A stretch of 63,088 nt of DNA, filler included, from Reclinomonas americana ATCC 50394 (lineage: Eukaryota), in NCBI GenBank assembly GCA_048213135.1. It is 6 parts of 3 records of this genome, joined end to end, with 100 filler letters (N's around TTAATTAATTAA, not from the genome) between each part and the next. Parts side by side here need not be neighbours in the genome. Positions count along the whole stretch, not along the records: positions 1 to 11,843 come from PS015340.1; 5 more parts are not named here. One strand, given 5' to 3'. Positions within the stretch are counted from its first letter, which is position 1. Each line of letters begins with the position of its first letter. The notes under the pieces are model-generated. The model was not told the DNA's origin, did no database searches, and worked only from the letters and a program-made list of their open reading frames with translations. Shown in pieces: positions 2,491-54,290 of this stretch. The position numbers and the translations under genes were made by a program.

Positions 2491-3059
2491 AGTATCGACA
2501 CCAAGAGGCAATGCACCTTGTTGATAAATCGACAGTACGACTTCAGTGAATAGCCTTCGGCAGTCGCGGAGAGGAAGGGCGGAGGTTGCGGTACACGACG
2601 GAGAAAAAAGACGGGGAACAGGGTGCAGACGCGGCCAAAAAATCGGGGTACGGGGTACAATTGAAAACGCGAGTTTTGGCCGCGCACCCCCCTCGAGTGT
2701 GTGCACAGATAGACTTGTCAGAAATAGCCGGGAATGAAGCGTGTCCCGTCGAAGTGTTGTCAAGGCTGTCTGTCGGGTAGGTCGTGTTTGTCGGGAATGT
2801 CGGGCAGATTCGACAATAATAAAACAACACCACATTCCAATAATGCGACAAACGCCCATAAAGCCCTTGCCGACAATGACCTTGGCATTCCAACAAAATA
2901 CAAACTATGCACGCCGTCCCGCCTGCGCACAAGAAAAAGGCTGCTCAAAAGCACACACGCTGGACAAAAACATTAGAAAGCCTTTGTTGGAGAAAGTATT
3001 ATTGTTGTCGCTCCACTCTCTCTCCACGCCCACTCAAAACTCTGCACGCCGACCCGCCT

Positions 3060-6000
3060 GCGATGATCCCGCCGCGCCTATGCACAAGAAACCGCATGTC
3101 AAACAATCGCACACCTCTCTTCCATGCACCTGCGATCCCACCTTGCTGCTCTGGCGCTGGCTGAGATGGCAGCCAATCTCGTCCACCACGACCTGCAAGT
3201 ACACTTCTTAAGTTTGAGGACCACACAGGCGGAACAACAACCACACTTGCCTCCGCCATGACCACCGCCTCCACGACCTGTGGCGCGAAAGCGGTAAGAT
3301 CGGGCACGGAAACACACGAAGCACGCACACACGCCACAAACCCGAATTCTGCGGCGGCGGCAGGTCACCACCACGCCCTGCATGAAATCAAGAAAAATGA
3401 GTCACCCAGGGTATCACGGCACACGAGAGACAACCCCGAGCTCTGCTGCTGCTGAGGCTGCTCACCACCTCGTCCTGCACGAATCAAGAACAATGAATCC
3501 AAGACACACAACACCCGCGTGAGCTGTGCTGTGTGATGATGTGATTGCTAATTCTCTGCAGTGCAGGCTGTTGCGTGACACTACGGTAATTGTGTGCGTC
3601 GCCATTCGGTGTGCATGCGCTTCTACTGCTGCTCACCGCCTCGTCCTGCACGAAACCCAGAACAGTGAGCGAGCAGACCAAGGAAAACATTGCGGTTGCC
3701 GCACACAGACCTCCTTGTCGTGGCTCCTGTGGTTGCTGGTCACCGCGTCCTGTGGAGAACCAACGACATTAAGTCACTGCAGAGCAGCATGTGCATCATG
3801 AGAGACACGGACAGACCTGCTTGTTGTGGCTGCTGTGGCTGCTGGTTACCGCGTCCTGTGGAGAAACAACGACACAATGTCACTGCAGAGCAGCATGTGC
3901 ATCATGAGAGACACGGACAGACCTGCTTGTTGCGGCTGTTGCAGCTCGCTGCGACCGCCATCACCACCACCGCGACCTGTGCAAATGGATGAGCGTCTCA
4001 CCAACAGCGCACATACACGCGCAACAAGATCAACATTGACGATGCTGACCTCCACGTCCACCTGTACACACGGTGTGAGAAACGACAACCGAGAACATGA
4101 TCATCAACGCCCAGTCTCACCACGCCCGCCGCGACCACCACGACCGCCACCACGATCTGCAATCACCCGTCAATTCACAAGGACGCATCTCGGATTCACC
4201 CTTCTTCCACAAACCTTGCTGCGGCAATTGAGCTTCTTGAACATTGATCGCTGGTTGCTGTTGTGAATGCGGCTGCGGAGGCCCACCAGCACCTTCGAGA
4301 GGGGAAAGTGAGTATCCAGCACGCAATCTCATGCACGAACCACTCAGACGCAACTCTGTGGTCGAGGAGCGCGACCTCCATCACCCTGCTGCTGCTGTTG
4401 CTGTGGAAGTGGCGGCGGCGGCGCACCAGCACCTGACACAGACACTCAACAAACCACACACAAAGCAACAACCAAGGCCACTCAGTCGCAACTCTGTGGC
4501 CGGGGAGCGCGGTTTCCTCCTCCCTGCTGCTGCTGCTGCTGCGGTGGTGCCTGCTGTTGCTGCTGCGGCGGCGCGCCAGCACCTATCGCCGACATTCAGC
4601 GAGCAACACGCAGTGTGGCACGCAAGGCCAATCACACGTAACTCTCTGGTCGAGGAGCGCGACCTCCACCTCCTTGATGCTGCGGCTGCGCTTGCTGTTG
4701 CTGCGGCGGCGCACCAGCACCTGTCACAGACACTAAGCAACCCACACACAAAGCAGGAATCAAGACCACTTATCGAAACTCTGTGGCCGGGGAGCGCGGT
4801 TTCCTCCTCCATGTTGCTGCTGGTGCTGTTGCTGGTGCTGTTGCTGTTGTGGTTGCTGCTGCGGGGGTGCCTGCTGTTGCTGCTGCTGCGGTGCACCAGC
4901 ACCTGTCGCCAATATTCAGCACCCGTACCCGGAATACACAACACACAAGCAACGCAACTCTGCGGCCGCGGTGCTCCTCCCTGCTGCTGTTGCGCTCCTG
5001 GTCGGTCGCCTTTCACGTCCGTGAGAGACGAAGGTGAAGCCGCCTTGATGAGCGAAAAGCACTCACCACGTTGGTTCTGACCACCACGTCCACCTACGCC
5101 ACAGAGAAAGGTAAGTTTCGACAAGGAGGCGATGGTGTGGTTGTCAGCAGCAGCTCACCCTCGAAATGTTGACCACCTCGACCACCTTTGCAACAAGCCG
5201 AACGTGAGAGTAGACAAGGGAGATATGCTGCGAGCAGACGACTGCACACCTTCGTAGTGCTGACCACCTACGCCACACAGAAAGATGAGTTTCGACACGG
5301 AGAGTATCGAAAGACTGTCGGGCAGCTCACCATGTTGGTGCTGACCGCCTCGTTCGCCTTCGCAACGAGCAGAGGGTAAGCGTTGACTTCGGTCCTGAAA
5401 GCAGGCGATTACACACCTTGGTACTGCTGGCCGCCTCGTCCGCCTGCACACCGAGGGAAAGTGAGATGCAAAGAGTTGAAGTTACGCATCGAACCCCCTC
5501 ATGAACACTTGCCTTCGTGATGCTGGCCGCCTCGCCCACCTATGACGAGCAACAAGGTTAGTTTCACCGTGCAGTTGTTTAGACACTTGTACAAGCACAC
5601 CTTCGTGATGCTGGCCGCCACGTCCACCTTTGCAAAGAGTCGATGTGATCATCGAAGCTGCAGCACACAGCGAGACACCTCATGAACACTTGCCTTCGTA
5701 ATGTTGACCACCTCGTCCGCCTTCGCAACGAGCATTGGCCAAGGGTTAGAATCGACTCACGAGAGATACTTAGAACAGGCGATTAAACACCTTGGTACTG
5801 CGGGCCGCCACGTCCGCCTGCACCACGTGGGGCAGTGAGTTGCAAAGCTGAAGTAACGCAGTAATTCCCTCTATGAACACTTGCCTTCGTGATGCTGACC
5901 TCCTCGTCCGCCTTGTCCACTCAGACAGGTCAGTTTCGACTCCGGTGAGCGATAGCAGGCGATTACACTACCTTGATACTGCTGGCCGCCTCGTCCACCT

Positions 6001-9000
6001 GCACCCGCAGAAGGTGAGATTGCACATAGAGAGCATCGATAGCTTGTCCGCCAGCGCACCTTCGTGGTGCTGACCACCTCGTCCACCTTTGCAAGGAGTT
6101 GTTGTGAGCATCAAAGCACAGGGAATACCTCATGAACACTTGCCTTCGTGATGCTGACCGCCGCGCCCACCTTGTCACATTAAAAACGCATCAACACCAA
6201 CAATGCACGCCAGAATCGATTTCACCCTCCACCACGCACGCACCTCTCCGACTCGATTGCTGAAACTGATTGCTTGCCGCAGCCTACCAACCACAGCACT
6301 GAGATTGCTGCTACACAAACGCCACAGTCTAACGACTCACCATCTCCTGAATCAACGACGGCACATCAGATCTCCGCGGAACAAATGCCGCAGCGCTCAA
6401 ATCAAGCGCACGCCCCGCGTCCAACGACGACGGAGGCGGAGCCGCTGGCTTCGAGGGAGGAGGCGGAGGTGGAGGCGGCGGAGGAGCAGGAGGCCGCGGT
6501 GCACCACCAGGGCGAGCCTGCTGCTACGCAATGTGTCAATCACTGCTTTTCTTCTCCCCACCCCTTCTCTCTCCCCGCTTCCGCCTCACCGCCCCCTCAT
6601 CATCTCGCGCATACGGCGCCGACTGTGGTCGACGTCCACCGTCAAACTCCTGCCGACCTCCACCAAATCCACCCCGACCGCCGCCACCTCCTCGCGGTCG
6701 CCGCTCGAATCGCTGACCGCGCCCGCCACGCCCGCCCCGTCCCGATCCGCCCAAGTAGCCATCATCCTCGATGCCAAAGTCGTCGTCGTCGCCACCGTCG
6801 AAAGCGCCAATCTGTGGACCCTCCGGCTGAGACAAGACGCCATCAGTCAGCATGCTACATCTCATCTGGCCGACGAAGCACGCACCACCGCGCCGCTGAC
6901 GAGCAGCTCGATCGCCTGCTGCAGGTTGCCATCGGCCCTCCGCAGAGCCTCGGCGGACTGATCGCGATCCACAAAGCCCATGGACTCGAGGGTCGCTGTT
7001 GTTATCGGAGAGATGAGCAACACAGCATACAGAGTGTTCCTCGATTCTAAGCGACGCAACAGTAATTAGCATGCTCCTGCATTGTCACTGCGTGTGAAAA
7101 CGGTGAGTCATGAGCACAGCAAGCACATTCGCAGGAAAACACGAAACGCTGCACAGCTCCGCCTCGGTAATCAGCACTGAATGGACGGTCGCGTCCACGG
7201 CCACCTCGACCTGAAAGAATGAGGTCAGCAACCAGATGCCTTGCGACGGAATCCACTCAGCTCTGTCTCCTTCACTCGACACGACCAACTCTCTTTGTCC
7301 TCTCCTGGCTCTCACGCCGGTAAGTAATCAACTTTCTTTTTTCTTCTCCCTCATCCCCTCATCCGTCGCCGGCTTCTCCTCACTCCCTTTCGCTTTCTCT
7401 GTTCCTCGTCACAGGCTTTTCACAGATTTTGTCTTCTGCCGTCATAAATATCGTACTCCTCTGCTACTCACTGGCTCTCTCCTTCGGTGGTCATTCTCTT
7501 TTCTCACAGATTTTCTCCTTCTGCGATCCTCACAGATTTTCTCCTTCTGCGTCCCTCACAAGCTTTCTCTTTTTGCGTCCCTCGACTTATTGTCCCCCTT
7601 CTCCCACTCGGAAAGTGCCTGCTCTTGTTCTCTACCCTCACAACCTGTCGCCCTTTCCCCTCTTCACTCACCACCGCGACCACCACGACCCCCTCGCTGA
7701 CTCTCAAATCCTGTGCCAGCAATACAGCTGTGAGCAATGTGCACACGCTTGCGACAGCAAAGACAAACTCTTGAGCGCACCAACTTTGCCGCGTGCACTG
7801 GGTGGTCCGCGCACCGAGCCACCAAGGCGCTTGCCTTCGTCGTCCCCGTCATCATCATCATCGTCGTCGTGATCACGGTCGTTGCCTCCGGCTGGTTTGT
7901 TGGCGGGGCGCGACGGTGGCGGCGGCGGAGGTGGCACAGACGCAGATTTCCCAGGCTGCGCGGGCGTCGTCGACGCCAAGCCAGAGCCACCGGGCTCGGT
8001 GCTGCTGCCCGAGGCGTTCCAGCCCTGCAGCAAGACGGGTGAGAGGGGCCAATATGTGATGGACAATCTCCTGCACGTTTCCTCCCTGACCGTGAGCGGC
8101 TTTCGCTGTCCCTGGTAGCCGGTGCCGACAAAGGAAGTTTGCGCGAGTGGAATCTTGCGCCCCAGCATGCCCTGCGCGACCGACAGGATGAATAAGAAGA
8201 AGAAGAAGAAGAGCAGGCATGTCTGTGCACGACGCACCTTGGGGAGGGGCTTGAACGGCGGCGGTCCACCAGCCACGGGCGCCGCCGAACCACTGGCTCC
8301 TTGCGCAGCCGCAGCTGTGGCTTCGTACGCCTCGGCGGCCTTGACGGAAAAATGACCACGAAGCCGACCGTGTTCCTGGCAACCACGCGCAAGATCAGCA
8401 CGACATGCACGCACACGCCACAAATCAATGTACACAAACCCGCTTCAACGCCCACGCCTCGTACAGATCCTTGACGCGGCCGCCCACCACGCGGATGCAA
8501 CTCGGCGTGAGCAACAATGTGCCATTTCGCACCGTCACGCCCCGCAGCTCGACCTTGGTGCCGGGGGGTGTGTTGATGCTAGCAGGAGCATGAAAGTGGG
8601 TGAGGAAGGCAAAGGGAGCAGAGAGAGGAAAGCAGCGATGAGAAGCAAGAAGCAGTGGGGCAGAGAGGAGTGGCGAACAATGAGAGGCAAGAAGCAGTGA
8701 GGCGGAGAGGAGCAGCGTGAGCAATGAGAGCAATGAGAGGAACGAGAGGAACGAGAGCAGCGAGTGGAAAGGAGCAGCGAGGGGAACGAGAGCAACGAGG
8801 GGAACGAGAGCAATGAGAGCAGTGACGGGAAAAGCAGCGAGAGGACCGAGAGCAGCGAGAGCAACGAGAGCAGTGAGAGCAACGAGAGCAACGAGAGCAA
8901 CGAGAGCAGTGACGGGAAAAGCAACGAGAGCAACGAGAGCAACGAGAGCAGCGAGAGCAACGAGAGCAACGAGAGCAGCGAGAGCAACGAGAGCAACGAG

Positions 9001-10147
9001 AGGAGCGAGAGCAGCGAGAGCAGCGAGAGCAACGAGAGCAGCGAGAGCAACGAGAGCAACGAGAGCAACGAGAGCAACGAGAGCAACGAGAGCAACGAGA
9101 GGAGCGAGAGCAGCGAGAGCAATGAGAGCAGCGAGAGCAATGAGAGCAACGAGAGCAGCGAGAGCAATGAGAGCAACGAGAGCAGCGAGAGCAACGAGAG
9201 CAACGAGAGCAGCGAGAGCAGCGAGAGGAACGACAGGGAGGGGTGCAACAAGAAGAAGAAAAAGCGACTCATCCCCACAAGCGACTCACGTGATCTCTTT
9301 CCCGAGGCTGTACACAGCACAACAAAACAACGCAAGTGAGTCACGCCTGTCAACACTCTCCCTCTCTCCTCCTTGCTCGCCGCACCTTCCATACGAGACT
9401 CCATGCGCGATGATATGCCCATCCGTCAACGACACCTGCAACAGTGCCGGCTCACGATCCTGCGCATGCGCAGGCGCAGTCACATTGCGAATGCGACCGA
9501 CTTGCAGCACGAGAGGACCCTCCAGCTGTTTCCCGGCGACAAGAGATGAGAGACAAGTGAAGACTGATAACAACAATAACAAAAAAGGATGAGAAAAACT
9601 TGAATGTTGTCTGCACGGTTGATATCGTCGGGAAGAACAGCGCGGAAAACGTCTTTCCAGTTCCACTGAGAGAGAGAGAGGGTGAGAGTGAGTGAGACAG
9701 GAAAATCACTGTTAACAGTCACTGATTGCAATCTGCAGTCATTCTCTCACTCACACACTTACACACACTTGCACACACTCGCACACACTTGTACACACAC
9801 ACTTGCACACACTTCCACACACTTGCACACATTTTCACACACTTGCACACACTTGCACACACTTGCACACACTTGCACACACTTGCGCACACGCATCTTC
9901 TTGTCTCTCTCTTCCCTCTTTTCCCTCACTCTCTCTCTCACTCTCTCTCTCCCTCTCTCTCCTCTCACTCAACATTGAGCACGCGCTGCCAGACTTGCTC
10001 CGCACTCATTGCACCCGCAGAAGGCTTCTTTCGCGCCTTCTGCATGCTTGTTCCTGCGTCATCATCATCATCATCATCATCGCTGTCCTGCGCAAGCCAC
10101 TCTTCTCCAGTGGCGTTGAGGAAGACTCCTCGTGACTCAAGTGCCAT
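3060..10147 (-). CDS. TDRD3-like protein: RMI1-type OB fold, UBA, PAM2-like motif and a long RGG/Gln-rich tail; more than 30 exons; no Tudor domain seen; 3' end uncertain
   Basis: ATG at 10147. Spliced exons give VLN|WNWKDVFRAVLPDDIN..|LEGPLVLQVGRIRNVTAP..LLQVSLTDGH..|INTPPGTKVELRGVTVRNGTLLLTPSCIRVVGGRVKDLYEAWALKR..GGPPPFKP, matching the TDRD3/RMI1 N-terminal OB region (LEGPCVLQ, LNTPPGTKV, GGPPPF). UBA: TLESMGFVDRDQSAEALRRADGNLQQAIELL at about 6890-7000. RGG exons continue below 6200. A possible stop lies at 3623, but RGG-type exons continue to about 3060. Confidence 0.8.
5067..6170 (-). repeat. Array of 13 coding microexons (12 x 27 nt, 1 x 18 nt), period about 90 bp, each encoding a GGRGGQHHE-type unit
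   Basis: Each unit reads ag|GTGGACGAGGTGGTCAGCACCACGAAG|gt or gc, for example exons 6144-6170, 6060-6086, 5885-5911 and 5067-5093. The sequences between them are less conserved introns of about 60-70 nt. Confidence 0.8.
8717..9230. repeat. Intronic 9-bp minisatellite (gagagcaac/gagagcagc)
   Basis: Directly visible tandem units lying inside a TDRD3-like intron. Confidence 0.95.
9755..9890. repeat. Intronic 10-bp minisatellite (acttgcacac)n
   Basis: Directly visible in intron 1 of the TDRD3-like gene. Confidence 0.9.
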
Positions 10148-13067: not shown

Positions 13068-16000
13068 CTCGCCGTCGGCACAGCGTGATGTGTCGCTAAC
13101 GGTCAACGTGTGGCACATTCCGCTGGCTTTTTGCGCGTCGGCGCTGCTCTCGCTGGGTTGCTCGGTGTTTTCGCACTTTGGCGTGGTTACGGTGAACAAT
13201 ATTCCGCTCAAAAAGTCCACTACCGAGACCGTGCGCACGCTGTCGGATCGTGTCACGCTGGTGACGGCTCGCGACGTGGGTGTGCGCGTACTGCAGTGGA
13301 AGAACGCGGAGAAGCAGTCGACGCCGGAGACATTGTATGTGCCTCTGTCGGCGCGGTCGGTCGGCGCAGTCGAGGAGACTGGTGGTGGCAGTACACGCAG
13401 CGCGCGTGCAGGCACCGGAGCGGCAGCAGCGGCGGCAGCAGCGGCAGCAGCAGCTGCAGCCTCCGCGTCGTCGCCCTCGCCGTCACCTTCGACACCCCTG
13501 CCCGGCATCGGCAGCAGCAGCAGCAGCAATGCAGCTGTGCCCTGTCGCGTGACACCCCTGCGACCGGATGCCGCCGCCACCGGATGCATTGTCAAGTACT
13601 GGAACAGTGGCAAGGTGGTGCTGTTGACGGCCGGTGTCCCCGCCGCCACGTCCTCGGCCACCACGGCCACAGCGGCGGCAGCAGCAGCAGCAGCAGCGGC
13701 TGCCGCGGCCGCGCCGGTGTTTGTTGTGTCGCACGGTATCGTACAGCACGGTGGACGCACACTGCTGCACACCTTCAATACCGCGGATCCGAAGCAGTTT
13801 CACCAGGTGGGAAGAGAGGGGGAAGGGAGAGGGAGAGGGATAGGGATAGGGGAAGGAGGAAAGAGTAGTAGTCGATTCCACTTCTTTTCTCTCTCTCTCT
13901 CTCTCTGTCTGCTTGTCTGCTGACTGTGCTCCTCCTGCTTGCTCGCAGTTGAAATCCATCAAAAAGTCCAGTCCCGCCGTGTTCCCGAACCTCGACGCCA
14001 CGGGATCGGTGGACGATACCAGTGCGGCGACCGGCAGTGGCAGTGGTGCTGGTGGTGGTGGCGAGTTGGTGGGCGGCCCGATCCAGACGCAGCACTTTGA
14101 GGAACTGGTCAAGCTGTTTGTGTATCGACTCGGGCGGCGTGGGAATCACACACAGAGGCAACTGGGATCGGTCAGCGGGACCACCACAACACTGGAGGTA
14201 AGAGTTGGAAGCGGAGAGAGTGACTGTTGTTCTTGGTCTCTCTGTCTCACGTTTCCTGCAGACTGAAAACGGCATCCCCTACAAGTGCCCTGCCACGCTG
14301 GAACGATGGACGCGCGCCTTTTCATTCCAGCCCACCCACGTCAACCACCCCAGCTACTCGCCCGAGTTGCTGTGTCTGACAGGGGTACGCAGTGCGTCAA
14401 GACTCTTGGCCTTTTTTTGCTGCTTCTTATTTGTCGTGCTGCTGCAGAATGTCACCAACTGCGTCATGGCCAGTCACCTCGACGACGACATGATTCGCGA
14501 AGTGACCGAGGTATGTCGAGCAGCTCGACTATGAAGCATCGTGAGACTCACCGTCAACGTCAGGCACTCCATCGCATTCGTGAGGCCGCACGAGAAAACG
14601 ACCCCAACATGATGCCGCGTCTGGCGCACTCGGACACGGAGCGATTCCGGCAGTACAAGAGGCTGTGGAGAGACATTAAGGACTTGGTGAAGGTGAATTG
14701 AGAAGAAAAAGAATTGCATTCTGTCTCCATGCTATTCACCTTGCACCCCTCGCAGGAGCACGCTGACGCCTCTCCCAAACATGCCTCCCTGGTGGCACAC
14801 ATGGATCGGTTGTGGATATGGCACCCGTTCACCATGATTGAGCCTGTGAATGGTACGCGCAGCACAACTCTCTCCTTTATTTTTCTCAATGCTCACCTCC
14901 TTCGTCCCCACACAGACACCTCCATCAAAAAGGAGAAGCGCGTGATGGATGTGCAGCGAAATCCCGACGGCACCGCCGTCATGCCGCTCGACATTGGCAA
15001 GCACGTGATTGAGAATCTGGGGCGGGTGGTCACAGACCGGCCGCACTACCACACCGACAAGTACATCTGTGAGTGCGAGCCGAGCTGCAGTCGCCCCACC
15101 TCTGCCTTCAGCTCATTGTGTGTCGATGCAGGGGCTGTTGGATTTAGGAGTACGCGCAAGTACCAAAGCATTAAGGACGTGTCGAGGCGCTGCACGTACA
15201 CGTCGGAGATTCGTGATGGTGGTGATGTTGCGTGAGAAGATGAGGGATAGGGAGAGAGAGGAGGGAGAAGAGGGAAAGAGTGGGAGGGAGTGGGTGAGGG
15301 TGAGAGAGAAGGAGAGAGGGAGATGGGTTCCACAGATGAGCAGAGTACGCGGCGCGATTTCTGAGAAGTGCGCGTCGTGGTGCTGAATTTTGTTGAAACG
15401 AGGTACGAATGCAGTGACAGTTCCCACTCTCTCCTTACTCTCCATTCTCCGCACCCTTGCCCTGTCTATCCGAAGATGTTGACGCGAGAGAGGGTGATGA
15501 TAATTCCTTTACTCCTCACTCTCCATTCCCCTCACCCTTGCCCTGTCTATCCGAAGATGTTGACGCGAGAGAGGGTGATGATGATTCCTCTCTCTCTCTC
15601 TCCATTCTCCTGCCCCTTTCTCCGTCCTATCTGAAGACCGTCAACACGAAAGTTGATGCAGTCATTGTTGCTGCTCTCTCCGTACTCTCCATTCCCTTCA
15701 CATCTACCCTGTCCCATCTACAAGTTGATAGTTCCCACTCTTTCTCTCTCTCTCTCTCCATTGCTCTCACCCTTTGCCCGGTCCCATCTGAATACTGTTG
15801 TTGACACGAGAGTTAGTGATGTTAGTTCCCACTCTCTCTCCCTTCCTCTCTCTCTCTCTCTGTCTCCTTTCTCTCGATTCCCCTCACCCTCTCCCTCTCC
15901 CTCTCCCTCATCCCCCTTTTCTTTCCCTCATTCCCCTTCTCTTTCCCATTCTCCTCCTCCTTCACCGTCCTTCCTTCCTCCTTCACCTTCTCCTTCACCT

Positions 16001-17213
16001 TCTCCTTCCCCTTCCTCTTCCTCTTTCCCTCTCCCTTCTTCTCTCTCTTATTCCTCTCCATTCTCCTCACCCTTTGGCTCTGTTCCCCTCCAGACACCGC
16101 TGTTCGTCGTCACCTGCGCCGACGAAGAGGACAACCCGTTCGAGGGACCCAACGCCACCGGTGAGCACGTGCAGTCCTCCTTCATGTTTCTTCACGACCC
16201 CCATTCCCCCTCCCTCACTGTCATTCGCGCAGCACCGTGGATGATGGTTCTGAAGCGAGTCATGGCCCAGAAAACCGAGATTCGCACCAGCATCAGTGGG
16301 CCCGATTTCTATGGCCTGGCGCACCCCACCATCATGATGCTGATGCAGGAGTTGCCGGGAGTGGAGCGACTGGAGAAGTTCCAGTATCAGGATTTCAGCG
16401 GAGGTGTGGCGCCGCCGTCCGAGTTGACCGGGAGAGCAGCGACGGCGGCCAAGAAACGCGGCGTCTCCAACAAGGTACTCGTGGCAGTCGATCCTTCTTT
16501 CCCATATGCATGTTCTCACCGCCCTTCTCTCTATTGCGCACCAGTCGGGCAAACGAGAACGCGGCGACGACGAAGGAATGGACGATGGGGAGGGTGGCGG
16601 TGACGAGATGGCGGGTGGAGCGGGAGGCAGTGGCGCCGACTCGACGGTGCACTCGCCACAGAACAAGCGTGCCAACACGAACTCTGTCGCGTCACTGTTC
16701 CAGCCGAGCGCGGCCGGAGGTGCCGCACAATCCTCTTCCTCAGCATCTGGGTTGGCCGCCACCACGTATCGCCAACCGCTGCCACTGGCGTGGCCGACGG
16801 CAACGTTGGCGGCGACGGCCACTCAATCGAGCGGCACATCGTCTTCGTCCGTCAATGCTTCATCGGCCTCCTCTGCCGCCCCTGCAGTGTCATCATCATC
16901 ATCATCGTCATTGTCCTCTAACCTACACGCCATGCCGCACTGGCTGCACCGCACGCGCCTGTGCTCGGATGTGTGGGCCAACGAACAAGGTCAGCACGGC
17001 GAAGAACTGGCCTCCATGATGGCCGTCGCCACGCCCACGCCAGGCGCCAACGGGCACGTCCGTGATGCGCGTGTGTCGTTGGCGCGCGTGGCTACCATGG
17101 CCGGTCGTCGGCATGCGGCATCGGCGGCGGTGCTCTCGGGGGTGAGCACGGGGGCACGGCTTTATGCGGGTCTCGATCTCGCCACCATCTCCAAGAGACC
17201 ACAATATGAATGA
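13068..17213 (+). CDS. INTS13: Integrator subunit 13 (Asunder)-like protein with C-terminal FYRN/FYRC domains; 5' end lost in N gap
   Basis: Motifs FGVVTVNNIPLK, VLQWK, CRVTPLRPDAAATGCIVKYWNSGKVVLL, VVSHGIVQHGGRTLLH, LERWTR and RQYKRLWRDIKDLVKEHADASPKH occur in the same order as recalled Asunder motifs [62 protein letters not shown] and EQYRIMWNELETLVRAHINNSEKH. These are followed by IENLGRVVTDRPHYHTDKYIWAVGFRSTRKYQS..RRCTYTSEIRDGG (FYRN) and PLFVV..PWMMVLKRV..SGPDFYGLAHPTIMMLMQELPG (FYRC). All introns join in frame; stop at 17213. Confidence 0.78.
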
Positions 17214-40000: not shown

Positions 40001-41098
40001 GTCACCCACGTACATCACTTGGTTTGTGGCATCCACCGCCACTCCCGCAGGCTGATTGAACGAGGCGGCTGCACCAGAGGCATTCGCACTCCCCGACGCC
40101 CCGTTTCCCGCCAGCGTGGTAACTGCGGCTCCTGCGGTGACCGCACGCACAGCGTGGTTCGTCAACTAAGGGAGAGAGACAGCACATAGTCAGCAGAATG
40201 CATCGAGCTGCAATCATGCATGCCAACACACACTCACATCGGCGACATACATCGTTCCCGTGGTTTGATCGATGGCGAGGCCGGCAACACTGTGAGAGTG
40301 CGTGAGTGAGTGGGAGAGAGAGAGAGAAGAGAGAGAGATGAGAGAGAAGAGAGAGAACGCAAGTACGCACTTTTTGAACTTTGCTGACACTCCTGTCGCG
40401 TTCGTCAGGCCGCACGTGCTTCCCGCAAAGGTGGTCACTGTGGCTGCGGGTGTGATGCGTCGAAGGAGACAGTTGCTGCAATCATCATCGTGTGTGCGTG
40501 CATGAGTGAGTGAGAGAGTGAGACTAATCAACAATCGACAGATGGAAGACGGAAGAGCGCACGCATGACAAACCCATAGTCGCCCACATACACGTTGCCT
40601 GCGGCGTCAAAGACCAGTCCCTGTGGAGAGAGCACACACTCATAATGTCAGCGAAGTGCACGGCTGGCGCAGCAGAGACACTTGTCGTGCACACACCATT
40701 GGTGTGTTCAGCAATGCACTTGCTCCAACGCCATCCGTTGTTCCCGAGGTACCTGCCGTGCCCACAATGGTGGAGACAGTGGAGGAGGAGACACCCAGAG
40801 TGGCAAAGTAGGGCGACCACTCAAAGGAGTTGGTGGTGCCACCCGCAACATTGTTGGGATTGATCCACGCGTTGAGAGTGACAGTCGAGCCTGTGATATT
40901 GGTGGCGACGGCGGTGGTAACTGTTTGGGCGTCTGTTGCACGTGTGCGTGTGCGTGAGTGAGAGTCGAACGAGACACGCAGCAGTGTGTAAGATAAGTGC
41001 GTAAGCGCCCACATTACCCCTCACACGCAACTCGCAGTGAGAGAGAGTGAGTGGACGAGCACGAGAACGACGAGTGCAACGCCGAGCGTTGCACGCAT
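34201..41098 (-). CDS. Large secreted protein, copy A: signal peptide, 2 x (FN3-like with inserted NHL propeller plus cadherin-like), further cadherin/Ig-like domains, 2 PAN/apple domains
   Basis: MRATLGVALVVLVLVHSLSLTA signal peptide. NHL blades such as VTTLAGNGASGSANASGAAASFNQPAGVAVD..MYVGDWLNNTVRRV. Cadherin-like NVAPTDI..TTDANAGQSFTYSIVGG..IRSTDNG..FDKAFTI. PAN domains DRPGG..CCEACDRYSQCRSWTF..CTLK and CSLWCSQLTACGSWTF..CVPK. Stop at 34201. Exon joins just before the PAN domains are not fully resolved. Confidence 0.85.
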
Positions 41099-41220
41099 CA
41101 CACCGCTGCGTGTGCGTGCGTAGACAGCGGAGTAGTATGGCATGCTTGCACTCACGCAGACAGAGCACTGAAGGAAACGGAAGAAACCCCATTTTGGCGC
41201 CAAAATTACACCAACTTCAC

Positions 41221-44200
41221 TCAGATCTTCGACCCCGACGTGCAGTCACCGCTCGTCGCACACGCCGTCGCCGTCGATGTGGCCACCACGCCACTCTTCG
41301 GCACACACTGCTTTGTCGACGCAGTGAATGTCCACGACCCGCATGCGGTCAACTGCGAGCACCACAGCGAGCACGCTTGAGGGCCAGTCGTTGTCTTGAT
41401 GGCCCACGTGAGATCGCCACCTGGTCGGTCTGCATGCAATGTCAATCACAGATATCTCTTATCACTTTTCTCTGCGAGCACTCACCCGTGCTGGTCAAGA
41501 AGCCGCTGCTGTCATACGCCGCCACACTTGTCTTTCGTCCCGACACCAAACAGAAATGCGAGCCACACACATTGCTTGTCTCTGCATTCGCGGCCGCCGA
41601 AGGCACGGTGCTCTGCATTCACCGGTGAGCATGTCATTTCCTCACAAACCCCGTCTTCGATCTCCGATCACGTACCTTCAGCGTGCACACGCTCGCGCCT
41701 GACGAGTTCGACGCCGCACCAGCATCCAGGAATGTCCACGATCGACACTGCGAGTACCGATCACACGCTTCGCAGCACCCGACCTCGCTTGCAACAGAGG
41801 GCAACACAGCCAGAGTTGTGCCGCCAGGTCGATCCACAGCTTCGAATAGGCACACTTCCAATGCCGCTGCTCAGTGTATGACGGAGAGTGAGACGGCAAA
41901 CGACGGAGCACACTGAAGCCCACAAGAAGCGCAACGAGCCACCACTCCATTCTGCACCGCTGCACAACCCGTTCCCCAAGCTGCACAAGCATCCAGTCAC
42001 CGTCAGCACCAACCACATACTCTGAATACACTACTACGCAGAAGGAAGAGCGGGCGACGACATTCATGCAGATCTGCTGCTTCCATTTCTCTCTTCTCCT
42101 CTTCATCCCTTACTCCTTCCTCCCTCACCACCACGCACCGTAGACAATCGTGAACTGCTTCGTGTACGTCAGTACGCCATCGCTCACTTGCACAAATACT
42201 TGCAGTCGCCGACTCAGTGGCGGCGCCACCGAGATCGTCAACTGATTGCCACCTACGATGCTGAATAGAGCCGCGTGCACGCCACCCGCAATGCTGAATG
42301 TCGGCGTCTGTCCCGTGTTGAGATCCACCATACTCAGTGTGCCCACCGTGAATGGCACTGTCGCACTCGAGTACGTCTGCGCACCCGACAACAGAATGTC
42401 GCTCGGACCAACGCTCCCTGCACACCTCACTCGTTTAGCTGACTCACGTATACACACTCATTCACACACATGCTTGCATACACACAGACGTACTTACACA
42501 GAGAGGGAGAGGGAAGAGAGAGAGAAGAACAACATGAAAGAAAATGAAGCACANNNNNNNNNNNNNNNNNNNNAGTCGGCCGAGGTGTTCACCAGCGCGG
42601 TTCCTGTCAGCGTCACCACTTGGCCAGCCAGTGCCGACACAAAGGTGGCCGACAGAGACGTCACAGTGGGTGCTGCATGAATGAGGGCAAAGCCAGATCA
42701 GTATCCTCGCACAGAAGAACGCGAAATCAGAGTAGCACGCAACCAGCAATGTTGAGGGTCTGGTCAAACGACATGGCAGGATTGCCATTGTCGGTCGTCC
42801 GCACAATCACCACCAACGACGCCGTCACTCCCGCATTCACAAACTGCAGCTGATTGCCGGACACAATCGTCACCAATGCGCTGCTCGCACCACCCACCAC
42901 CGAATACGTGAACGACTGCTGCGAATCCACATCACTCGTGCTCATCGTGCCGATCGCCAGTCCTGCCGTGCTGGGTGGAAGGTACGAGCTCGCGCTCAGT
43001 GTCACCGCCGTCGGTGCATTATTCACTGCCGAAAGACTAGGTCAGCATCCACATGAAGAAACACAACACTTTCACAGCGTACCACTCACCCGACGTCACA
43101 CTGAATGACTTGTCGACAAACATCGGCGGCGTGCCATTGTCGAATGAGCGAATCGAGACGGCCAGCGGACTCGCCGACTGTCCCGCCGACGTGATCTGCA
43201 ACTGCGCGCCTCCTCCGCCCAGGGAGAAGACGCCGCTGTTCGCTCCGCCGGTGACTGCATAAGTGTACGACTGGCTCCCATCGCCGTCTGTGGTGCTCAT
43301 CGTACACACAGGCATGGCGGCCGTCGACGGTGCGACATAGGTGGCAGAGCAGACAATGTCGGTCGGTGTCGAGTTGGAGGTGGTGAAGGACATGGTTGAC
43401 CCGGTGAGAGTGCTTGGTACAGTGGACGTGGAGAGGGCACGGAAGTAGTACGTCCAGTTGGCGGCGAGCGATGTGATTGACGCAGTGAGGGCGGTGCTGG
43501 AGGCAACACCAGAGGTGGCCGGGGTGGCCGAGATGGCAGTGGTGGAGCCGATGGTGAGACGGCGAATGGTGGAGTTGCTGTACTCTGGTGTATGAAAACA
43601 TTGAGAACGAAGTGACACAATAGTCGCACAAGCTCCCGTGAGACCTCGGACCTGCAATATACAAGGTAGAAGATGCAGCGTGGTACGCTATAAAGTGCTA
43701 AATGCCAAGACAAGCACTCAAGTCAGAGCAGTCTCCACACAGCGCAGGGGGAAAAGAAACACTTACCGGAGAGTAGAACCGAGCAGTCGTGAGTGGACTT
43801 CCGTCTGCCGACCCGGACATTCCTGCAGCTCCAGCGATGGTTGTGACAACGCCAGTACTGATGACGATTTGGCGAATCAAGTGATTGCCCGTCTGTGGAG
43901 ATTATCTTGTGAACAAGAAGGTAACAATAGGACCAAAACGGCCGACACAACCGCAACTTCAGCAACGTAAAGAACGCCTCGTGCTCGGTCGAGCTGGATG
44001 CCAATGGGGGTGCCGAATCGAGCCGCAGTCCCTGTAGCATCTGTTGAACCTTGTGTTCCGGTGAGCGAGCCGGCCACAGTCGACACAGTCATCGCCAGCA
44101 TGTCGATCACACGAATGTTGTGGCGATTTCGATCAGCTACAATCATTTTCCATAGTGTGAGCACGCGCGTCTTGCTACAATGATTGCACACTCGCATACC

Positions 44201-47114
44201 GACATACAGCCGATTGGCCGTCGAATCCAGTGCCACGCCAGATGGACCACTAATACGTGCCGTTGTGGCACAAGCTCCGTCAACCGTGCCCAACGATCCG
44301 ATCGTTCCACAGTACGTGGTGACCTCGCCACCATACGTGATCTGAAGAGTGGCACGTAAGTACTTGATGAGGAAGTGGTCAAAGAACGCAAACACCTTTC
44401 TTACAGCCGAGTTTCCCCAATCACCAACATACATCACTTTGTTGACCGAATCAACAACAATGCCGTGTGGAGAATTAAATCGCGCACTCGATCCGGTGCC
44501 ATTTGCAGAGCCGGAAGATCCGTTGCCAGCCAGCGTTGACACAAATCCGGAAGGCGTGCTCACACGGATTGCATGACTCCCATCCTGCAGAGCCCGACGG
44601 TGAGACGTGGTGGGAAGAGTCTCTCAAGGACGTCTCAATACTCAACGGCAGAGATGTAAAGGTATCCGGTGGTCAGGTCGAACGACAAGTCGAAGGGTGA
44701 GTTGAATCGCGCGGCATTGCCGATTCCATCAACCAGGCCAGCGACGCCTGCAGTCCCCAGAAACGTCGTTACCACACCTCCACTCGTCACTCGCCGAATC
44801 GTGTGATTGTAGATATCACACACGAATGCGATACCCGAAGCGTCAAACGCAATGCTCTGTCACATAGACGCAAGCGCGTGAGACACGCTTACGTGGTATT
44901 GTTACAATCACACCTACATCAGACGAACCGTTGCGAAATTGAATCGAGCAGCTGTGCCCGTGCCATCTGCCGATCCGGCCATACCCGCAGTGCCCAGCCA
45001 CGTCGACACCGCTGGTATGACACCCAACGCAGCCGTCGTTGGTGCCCACTCGAATGAGTTTGTCATTGTCGAGGCAGCCACAGAGTTGCCCACCACTGCA
45101 TTCAGTGTCGCCGACGACGTCGTCACACTGCTGGCTGCCAGCGTGGCCAGCGACTGGGTGGCTGTGACGCACCAAAGGGAGTAGAGGAGAACTGTGAACG
45201 ACCAGCGATGCAGAACCGACAAAGGTGACGGTGAACCAAGAAGAGAAGAGAAGAAGGAGGAAGGATAGGAGCAGGAGGAGGAGGAGGAAGAGGAAGAAGA
45301 AATCGAGGAAGGGGAGAAGCTACAAGAGCAGGAGGACGAAGAGACAGAGGATTGGAGGAGAAGGAAGAACAAGACAACGAAGATAACCATACCGACAAGA
45401 AGATGGCGAAAAAAGGAGAGAGACCCAGAGCACACTTCAACCCCCATTTGCCCCACCGGTAGTGATGGTGAACGCCTTGTCAAAGAACAGCGGCGGCGTT
45501 CCATTGTCCGTCGACCGGATCGTCACCGCCAGCGAGCTGCCCGCCTGCCCCGCCGCCACAATCACCAACGACTGCCCGCTAATCGAAAACACCGCACTAT
45601 TGGCGCCACCGACAATCGAGTACGTGAAAGACTGACCCGCGTTCGCGTCTGTCGTCTGCAGCGCACACACGGCTTGATTCGCCACCGACGGCGACACATA
45701 TGTTGTCGGCGAGCACGTAATGTCGGTCGGCGCCACATTGGTGGATGTGGTGAACGACACGGTGGCGCCATTGATGGTGCTGGGTGTGGAGGTGACACCG
45801 ACAGCGCGATAGTAGAATGTCCAGTTGGTCACCAATCCACTCAGTGAAGCGGTGATCGATGTGGCAGCGGAGCCGGTGGCGGTGGCGGGAGTGGCCGACA
45901 CCAATTGCGACGCCAGCGAGAGGCGACGGATGATGTGCGTGGTGTAATCGGCAATGAGCACCGATGCAGTCGATGCATCGAAGGCGAGGTGAACAGGCGA
46001 GTTGAAGCGTGCCACAGCCAGAGCACTGCCATCGGCTGATCCACTCATGCCCGCCGCACCGCCAATCGTTGTCACAGACGAGTCTGACACACGAATGCTT
46101 CGCACGGTGTTGTTGACTGACTGCGTGGGGGGGTTCAGGCAGTGAGAGTCAAGAAGCGAGACGTCTCAAAGTGTGGAAAAGATACGCAACATCGGCGACA
46201 TAGATGACGTTGTTTCCAGAGTCGTATGCCAGTCCGATCGGCGTGTTGAAGCGAGCGGCCGTTCCTGGTGACCGGTAAGAGCACACGCAACAAGTCCAAT
46301 CGGGGGTGAACATGATGAACTCACCAGTGGCATCCGTGGATCCAGATGCGCCGCTCGCTGAACCCGCCACCGTCGTCACCGTCATCGCCACCGTGTCAAT
46401 CGCTCGGATGGAGTTGTTCACACGGTCGGCTGCACTCACGCAAAACCAAGCAGAAGGCGCAGGTGAGGATGGGAGGAAGGGCATCATCTCTCCCGCACAC
46501 CACTCACCAACATACAGCGTGGTTCCGACGAGCAGCACGCCGTTGGGACCACCGAACCGCGCCGCCCCCGCACAGGCACCATCGGCGGTGCCACTCACGC
46601 CCGTAGAGCCACAGAAGGTCGTCGCCGCACCAGCGTAGGTCACTCGCCGAATGGTGTTGTTGAGCCAGTCACCCACATACACCACTTGGTTTGTGGCATC
46701 CACCGCCACTCCCGCAGGCTGATTGAACGAGGCGGCTGCGCCGGAGGCATTCGCACTCCCCGACGCCCCGTTTCCCGCCAGCGTGGTAACTGCGGCTCCT
46801 GCGGTGACCGCACGCACAGCGTGGTTCGTCAACTGTGTGAGAGAGACGCACGCACAGAGTTAGAATGTGTGCCTGCATCGAGCTGCGATCATGCATGTCA
46901 GCACACACTCACATCGGCAACATAGATGGTGCCAGTGGTTTGGTCGATGCCGAGGCCAGCGACACTGTGAGAGTGCGTGAGTGTGTGTGGGAGAGAGAGA
47001 NNNNNNNNNNNNNNNNNNNNNNNNNNNNNNNNNNNNNNNNNNNNNNNNNNNNNNNNNNNNNNNNNNNNNNNNNNNNNNNNNNNNNNNNNNNNNNNNNNNN
47101 NNNNGGTAGGTAGG

Positions 47115-51549: not shown

Positions 51550-54290
<2,741 letters not shown>

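Follow-up and report, generated by a model that had tools for sequence, protein, structure and literature searches.

A putative array of RGG microexons in a TDRD3-like gene of Reclinomonas americana

We analysed a window of 63,088 nucleotides (nt), filler included, from the Reclinomonas americana ATCC 50394 assembly GCA_048213135.1, composed of six parts of three records joined end to end, and focused on an array of short units encoding arginine-glycine-glycine (RGG) motifs at positions 5067 to 6170 of its minus strand. Our data indicate that this array is probably composed of 13 real coding microexons, mostly or wholly constitutive, which were generated by repeated duplication of a module of approximately 88 nt and which contribute to the tail of a Tudor-less TDRD3-like protein. 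It is very probable that the units are genuine exons and that they arose through repeated duplication.

Anatomy and coding character of the array

Read on the minus strand from 6170 to 5067, the array contains 13 units, twelve of 27 nt and one of 18 nt, and sequence reading and a coordinate scan agree on this count. The lengths of all 13 units are divisible by three and all 13 are in phase 1-1; the units and peptides proposed by the initial annotation are confirmed. GGRGGQHHE, counted four times in the tally of phase-1 peptides, is the peptide read for microexons 1 (6170-6144), 2 (6086-6060), 4 (5911-5885), 7 (5627-5601), and 8 (5539-5513), while GGRGGQQYQ occurs twice, in microexons 3 (5998-5972) and 9 (5443-5417). 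The remaining units encode GGRGGPQYQ (microexon 5, 5817-5791), GGRGGQHYE (microexon 6, 5720-5694), GERGGQHQH (microexon 10, 5357-5331), GGQHYE (the 18-nt microexon 11, 5267-5250), GGRGGQHFE (microexon 12, 5185-5159), and GGRGGQNQR (microexon 13, 5093-5067). When joined, the units comprise 342 nt and 114 residues, including 49 Gly, 20 Gln, 15 His, 13 Arg, 9 Glu, and 5 Tyr, with an RGG-to-RGG distance of 9 residues (6 residues between). The 12 internal introns range from 57 to 70 nt, the start-to-start distance between units is 82-97 nt (81-97 nt in the repeat search), and exons make up 31% of the array span, which is free of N runs. A repeat search that assumed no reading frame recovered a microexon family of 15 copies, 13 of which lie inside the array. 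A further 27-mer bounded by AG and GT at 5043-5017 (GGFTFVSHG) was rejected as a unit; it lies inside the intron after microexon 13 and is unlike the other units.

All 13 units are preceded by AG, and they are followed by GT in nine cases and by GC in four (units 1, 4, 6, and 8). The GC donor reads GCAAGT in all four of these units, and at all four the extended context is AAG followed by GCAAGT. Of the 12 array introns, 11 contain a CTNAY branch-like motif, at a distance of 17-26 nt from the 3' splice site. The array introns fall into the same size class as those of the rest of the host gene, where 14 of the 19 other modelled introns measure 56-74 nt, and GC content is higher in the array exons than in the introns (0.64 vs 0.51). 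Furthermore, the array is in frame with both of its neighbours, an upstream exon of 40 nt (6283-6244) and a downstream exon of 51 nt (5009-4959), which are the exons that the initial annotation placed near 6250 and near 5000. The unspliced frame is not open, with minus-strand open reading frames (ORFs) in the array span reaching at most 108 residues.

The differences among exon copies are distributed in the manner expected of coding sequence. Across the twelve 27-nt copies we counted 421 pairwise differences, of which 81, 44, and 296 fall at codon positions 1, 2, and 3, respectively. Counted as minimal changes per site, the corresponding numbers are 3, 4, and 15 (position 3, 15 of 22; binomial p = 8.8e-4), and within the GGRGG core they are 0, 1, and 8 (position 3, 8 of 9; p = 9.7e-4). 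Of the codon pairs that differ among the 27-nt copies, 209 are synonymous and 148 are not. Across 66 pairs of units, mean identity is 0.76 for exons and 0.56 for the introns on each side, relative to 0.48 for shuffled introns, and exon identity exceeds that of both flanking introns in 65 of the 66 pairs. The third-position concentration proposed earlier is thus borne out by both ways of counting, and the proposed coding constraint is supported by the codon-position bias together with the excess of exon over intron identity. The accompanying claim, that the spacers are far more divergent than the exons, holds for the mean identities but not throughout, since the introns form homologous classes with identities of 0.70-0.77. 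Overall, judged from their sequence, the array units have the appearance of true coding exons on which purifying selection acts.

These intron classes bear on how the array was formed. Downstream introns are homologous between units 1 and 6 (0.76), 4 and 8 (0.77), 3 and 9 as well as 5 and 9 (0.70 each), and 10 and 12 (0.75), while upstream introns are homologous between units 2 and 7 (0.76) and 5 and 9 (0.77); the four GC-donor introns constitute one homologous intron class. In the repeat search, segments composed of an exon and flanking intron are 76-85% identical and form a mosaic pattern. Since the introns are homologous, the array very probably grew by tandem duplication of modules of one exon and one intron (approximately 88 nt) in several registers. 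We considered whether introns had instead been inserted separately into a continuous repeat, and rejected this given that the introns are homologous and occupy the same codon position in every unit. Searching 14 introns against the rest of the 63-kilobase window (blastn-short) returned no copies of array introns, the longest match being 15 nt; this small sample thus gives no hint of an introner-type family. Homologous symmetric exons and homologous flanking introns, the two marks of tandem exon duplication, are both present here. The 18-nt unit 11 looks like a 27-nt unit that has lost 9 nt.

The host gene and its TDRD3-like product

From our reading of the minus strand between 10300 and 2300, with exon borders checked by coordinates, the host gene of the array appears to extend from 10147 to approximately 3035. 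Its frame stays open from the region of the start codon to the end of the array and across the 11 exons that follow. The OB-fold is encoded by two exons, one for its N-terminal half with a short insertion loop (P0002, 9525-9386) and one for its C-terminal half (P0001, 8578-8440), the latter matching RMI1_N_C with an E value of 3.6e-13. The best PDB match of both exons is human TDRD3 (E 4e-9 for P0001 and 2.5e-6 for P0002), while RMI1 is matched by P0001 with an E value of 1e-4 and not at all by P0002. A spliced model of the N-terminal 205 residues is 39% identical over 173 residues to P0113, a TDRD3-family protein of the representative library (E 8e-32). Furthermore, the exon at 6995-6886 encodes a UBA domain (PF00627, E 9.7e-7; score 29 bits, threshold 22.4).

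We asked whether the predicted OB-fold carries features that set TDRD3 apart. The structural study of human TDRD3 (PMC5296760) describes a loop, V79-P92, that has 23 residues fewer than its RMI1 counterpart and has hydrophobic ends, and names R96, V109, and F139 as core residues that select TOP3B over TOP3A. In the PDB alignment the beta2-beta3 insertion loop of the R. americana protein belongs to the short TDRD3 type; it has 2 residues fewer than the human loop, the equivalents of Val79, Pro82, and Pro92 are retained, and M94 is replaced by Leu. At the core positions, the structure-match alignments place Gln at R96 and Thr at F139, with V109 retained; the same source reports Gln at position 96 for Drosophila.

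A Tudor or SMN domain was found in none of the 39 minus-strand ORFs of at least 30 residues below 4300, and no Tudor domain was found in other ORF scans, one of which covered 67 of 223 ORFs of at least 90 residues, although such scans could miss a domain that is divided among tiny exons or situated past the window edge. The 63-kilobase window contains no TOP3B gene. The initial description of the host protein as TDRD3-like stands for the N-terminal helical and OB-fold part and for the UBA domain, and since no Tudor domain was found we restrict the term TDRD3-like to the TOP3B-adaptor half of the protein.

We next describe the remaining exons. Exon 1 (10147-9974) carries the presumed start codon at 10147-10145, and exon 2 (9665-9600) encodes the end of the helical DUF1767-like part, including an LPDDIN motif common to homologues. 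The exon 3' of the OB-fold (8339-8238) contains a conserved GGPPPF motif and is followed by a linker exon rich in Pro and acidic residues (8024-7790), read by eye, with its acceptor at 8024 and several candidate GT or GC donors near 7790-7830. Canonical, closely spaced RGG runs occur in two phase 1-1 exons (7710-7672 and 7210-7148), in an acidic exon with a canonical RGG box (6826-6590), and in a 36-nt phase 1-1 exon (4156-4121). A Pro-rich exon (6523-6341) precedes the 40-nt exon at 6283-6244, which leads from phase 0 into phase 1. The array is part of a longer run of small symmetric exons, with 24 consecutive exons from 6170 to 3711 all in phase 1-1. Downstream of the array, six Gln- and Pro-rich phase 1-1 exons (5009-4959, 4902-4780, 4720-4643, 4582-4493, 4432-4355, and 4292-4215) form a second family of exon and intron modules, with a period of 138-150 nt and 70% matches by Tandem Repeats Finder (TRF); their introns measure 56-62 nt and mostly start with GTTGCG or GTTTCG, and their segments end in NRAPRPQ-like motifs. 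A 14th 27-nt exon of the microexon family (4061-4035) encodes GGRGGQHRQ and has an alternative in-frame donor 6 nt upstream. Three small phase 1-1 exons follow (3976-3923, 3855-3817, and 3749-3711), of which the last two belong to a 106-nt tandem pair at 3705-3916, 92% identical, each copy being a 39-nt exon with a 67-nt intron. Judged from its sequence, this pair seems to be the most recent of the gene's duplications.

The candidate 3' region (3645-3035), read by eye, contains more RGG-like small exons and a possible stop near 3035. Here a TAG lies in frame at 3625-3623, unless splicing makes use of a 9-nt exon, and a 40-nt exon-like unit at 3474-3435 breaks phase 1. A further 27-nt phase-1 Gly/Arg unit at 3277-3251 has a GC donor (GAG followed by GCAAGT), the fifth GC-AG donor of the gene, and the repeat search relates it to the GC-donor class of the array. 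This 3' end looks partly decayed or mis-assembled.

We asked how common such a tail is among TDRD3-like proteins. An exhaustive search of the representative library with the 46-residue OB-fold exon returned 133 proteins at E <= 1e-3, among which the top multi-stretch matches resemble unrelated repeat proteins and the single-stretch matches at residues of approximately 100-170 are TDRD3 relatives; a homologous-protein search of longer proteins with the OB-fold exon gave no match at E <= 1. We found six or more RGG, GGR, or RGR motifs in the C-terminal half of 15 of the 67 library matches of at least 150 residues. Many RG/RGG-tailed library relatives have no Tudor signature, and the LPDD(I/V)NR motif is common to them and this gene. 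Judged from these sequences, an RG/RGG tail is a recurring trait of Tudor-less TDRD3-like proteins, and the regular 9-residue repeat with one exon per repeat is, as far as seen, particular to this gene. A metagenome scan with a degenerate 30-nt pattern spanning two adjacent microexons found no spliced or related copy, and its two pattern matches, each single, on GC-rich contigs, and without a repeat, look like chance occurrences in bacterial DNA.

Several other observations were made in the course of this work. With the PAM2 consensus as reference, the Pro-rich exon just upstream of the array contains a PAM2-like motif (L-D-L-S-A-A-A-F-V-P, minus strand, 6406-6377), through which the protein might be connected with poly(A)-binding protein. 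Such a motif is present in 2 of 34 TDRD3-like homologues of at least 300 residues (P0012 and P0066), compared to a shuffle mean of 0.11. The intron that splits the OB-fold is 807 nt long, and approximately 600 base pairs (bp) of it (8700-9285) are a 9/18-nt minisatellite with units like GCTCTCGTT (minus strand), while the first intron contains an octamer microsatellite at about 9760-9900. Elsewhere, the window contains a gene for an FYRN/FYRC protein (14702-16600, plus strand), one or more genes with NHL repeats (arylesterase-like; 37450-46859, minus strand), and a DDX24/MAK5-like DEAD-box helicase gene (53009-53944, plus strand) whose library matches are DDX24/MAK5-like and eukaryote-wide, with identities of at most 44% in most rows.

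Constitutive inclusion and its alternatives

We propose that tandem duplication, by unequal recombination, of a module of one 27-nt phase-1 exon and one minimal intron would have produced the array, and that the spliced units would place a 114-residue GGRGGQ-x-x-x repeat in the C-terminal half, long and disordered, of a protein that combines a TOP3B-adaptor-type DUF1767/OB-fold part and a UBA domain with several canonical RGG boxes and with stretches rich in Pro and Gln. Canonical tri- and di-RGG motifs are closely spaced repeats with 0-4 residues between them, and the RGG spacing of the array is wider than this definition and wider than the protein's own canonical runs. By analogy with RGG/RG proteins, the tail may bind RNA or other nucleic acid, may be arginine-methylated, could supply multivalent weak contacts, and might bring a TOP3B-type topoisomerase to messenger ribonucleoprotein particles. 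In this lineage it would replace the Tudor/exon junction complex-binding C-terminus of animal TDRD3. A study of TOP3B (PMC10969213) describes its RGG box as methylated and needed for the RNA and DNA activities of the enzyme. Repeat number would be set at the DNA level over evolutionary time through gain and loss of modules, with splice-level variation possible but secondary.

Several points weigh against this explanation. The splicing of the array is read from sequence only, and a chain search that maximised open-frame AG...GT exons returned many alternative paths, so that an open frame and splice dinucleotides alone are weak evidence. The gene model produced by this exon-count-maximising search was itself implausible and was dropped for the reading based on homologous modules. 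AAG acceptors occur at 7 of 13 units in the array vs 2 of 19 elsewhere in the gene, and since the array combines these seven acceptors with four GC donors, its sites fall short of the optimum and constitutive use cannot be taken for granted. The repeat (GGRGG, then Gln or Pro and any three residues) is present in 0 of the 67 library matches of at least 150 residues, which leaves the repeat itself without comparative support, and in the libraries searched the gene has no close relative, the best identity being 45% (TDRD3-like N-terminus). In addition, the coherent gene model ends at 3711, the 3' end below having been read by eye, and the window is a gapped draft with 21 N runs of 20-757 nt, several of them in pairs of 44 nt; no N run lies between 1918 and 11843, which leaves the TDRD3-like gene gap-free.

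Some of these points would also suit an array that is not made into protein at all, being a decaying repeat in an intron or 3' region or a pseudogene with relic exons. The ease with which alternative open chains are found, the lack of the repeat in library homologues, the sequence-based reading of splicing, and the signs of decay at the 3' end (the in-frame TAG and the phase-breaking 40-nt unit) all lean this way. Nevertheless, the third-position bias, intact splice dinucleotides at all 13 units, and nearly ubiquitous branch-like motifs are unexpected of neutral decay, and the frame is open well past the array; we regard non-expression as very improbable. A different proposal accepts the units as exons and treats them as cassettes. 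In this proposal, which was that of the initial annotation, subsets of microexons are skipped in frame to give a ladder of isoforms that vary in RGG number and therefore in RNA-binding or condensate valency. That any subset can be skipped in frame is true as a matter of arithmetic, given that the 13 units, like at least 24 consecutive tail exons, are all in phase 1-1. The exons are very short and, with their GC donors and AAG acceptors, their sites are weaker and more heterogeneous than those of the rest of the gene; a survey across eukaryotes (PMC6142364) associates skipping with short exons and weak splice sites, another study (PMC2490688) finds GC donors enriched in alternatively spliced genes, and the schistosome antigen 10-3 gene is described (PMC4015677) as having alternatively spliced 27-bp exons. 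On the other hand, the same survey (PMC6142364) associates skipping with longer flanking introns and exon definition, sees raised skipping rates only in bilaterians, and states that intron retention is believed to be commonest outside animals, although it also mentions three species where skipping is associated with short introns. The introns flanking the microexons are at the minimal size for the gene, which favours intron-definition splicing, under which skipping is uncommon (PMC6142364). Furthermore, the four GC donors all stem from a single intron class and so represent one event rather than four, and the purifying selection seen on every copy is in keeping with units that are normally included. 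Retention of array introns would introduce a stop in 7 of 12 cases, and only the 60- and 63-nt introns could keep the frame. We consider the cassette proposal unlikely, and a more specific form of it, in which weak GC donors and AAG acceptors act as a splice-level rheostat that varies the count of 9-residue RGG units and tunes the valency of a topoisomerase-3-beta adaptor, quite improbable. Regulated or combinatorial skipping in general falls within this same doubtful range, and some detectable low-level skipping is somewhat more probable than that.

Variation might also arise in the DNA itself, with the modules of approximately 88 nt behaving as a coding minisatellite whose copy number differs among strains or alleles through unequal recombination. 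The mosaic intron homology, which implies several duplications in different registers, the apparent 9-nt loss in the 18-nt unit, and the two other module families of the gene that are built alike, including the 92% identical pair, are consistent with such turnover. Its basis is a single assembly, however, and most modules are only 56-85% identical, which indicates that most of the duplications are old. We hold current copy-number tuning of this kind to be a tentative possibility; it is compatible with constitutive inclusion of duplicated microexons and not exclusive of it.

If the exons are used as we propose, the gene would provide an unusually clean case of a low-complexity RNA-binding tail built by module duplication with one repeat per exon, in which 27-nt exons and introns of approximately 60 nt are near the lower size limits for both. 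It would also be a natural test case for the fidelity of intron-definition splicing over thirteen consecutive microexons, and for GC donors and AAG acceptors as a cause of in-frame skipping. Should the rheostat prove true, the array would be an intracellular RNA-binding analogue of schistosome micro-exon genes in a eukaryote of unicellular grade.

Relation to known systems

Our searches of the open-access literature turned up neither an account of microexon arrays that encode RGG repeats nor one of TDRD3-like proteins lacking a Tudor domain. The closest structural reference is animal TDRD3 (PDB 5GVD/5GVE and 9C9W; PMC5296760), with which the R. americana protein shares the N-terminal helical part and OB-fold, the short beta2-beta3 loop, GGPPPF after the OB-fold, and a UBA domain followed by a long disordered middle and C-terminal region. 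Unlike animal TDRD3, it has no Tudor domain that we could find, and its C-terminal half is instead rich in RGG, Gln, and Pro. In animals the RGG box is on TOP3B and TDRD3 reads methyl-arginine, whereas here the adaptor itself bears RGG repeats. This suggests that, outside animals, RGG repeats can be part of the TDRD3-type adaptor and take the place of a Tudor reader, which bears on how TOP3B-type enzymes reach RNA. The Tudor-less protist and algal TDRD3-like proteins of the library (for example P0033, P0035, P0083, P0089, P0130, and P0134) are similar in having an N-terminal domain with LPDD(I/V)NR, RG/RGG-rich C-termini, and no Tudor signature. However, their tails are irregular RG/RGG runs rather than a 9-residue repeat, and in several of them an MTLEE(W/Y)E segment is conserved and a UBA domain is not evident.

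The micro-exon genes of Schistosoma mansoni, including antigen 10-3, likewise contain runs of short symmetric exons, among them exons of 27 bp, but they encode secreted proteins with signal peptides and their skipping is documented (PMC4015677). The gene described here is predicted to encode an intracellular protein related to nucleic acids and has minimal introns. It does contain a run of short symmetric exons between ordinary exons, 13 of 18-27 nt within at least 24 symmetric ones. We did not assign it to the Schistosoma-type micro-exon gene family, as its N-terminus is a TDRD3-type helical/OB domain and not a signal peptide.

Classic tandem arrays of symmetric exons include the 54-bp exons of fibrillar collagens and the PEVK exons of titin. 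Furthermore, a survey of human genes (PMC3632108) describes genes of mostly disordered proteins as having symmetric exons that often derive from internal tandem duplication. The R. americana array resembles these systems in its disordered repeats, symmetric exons, internal tandem duplication, and whole repeats per exon, and differs from the human, collagen, and titin arrays in its shorter exons (27 nt), minimal introns (approximately 60 nt), RGG-type content, and occurrence in a eukaryote that is not animal-like. It introduces no new principle, given that alternatively spliced 27-bp exons have been described in schistosomes and that tandem symmetric exons encoding disordered repeats are already known, and it is a further member of the latter class.

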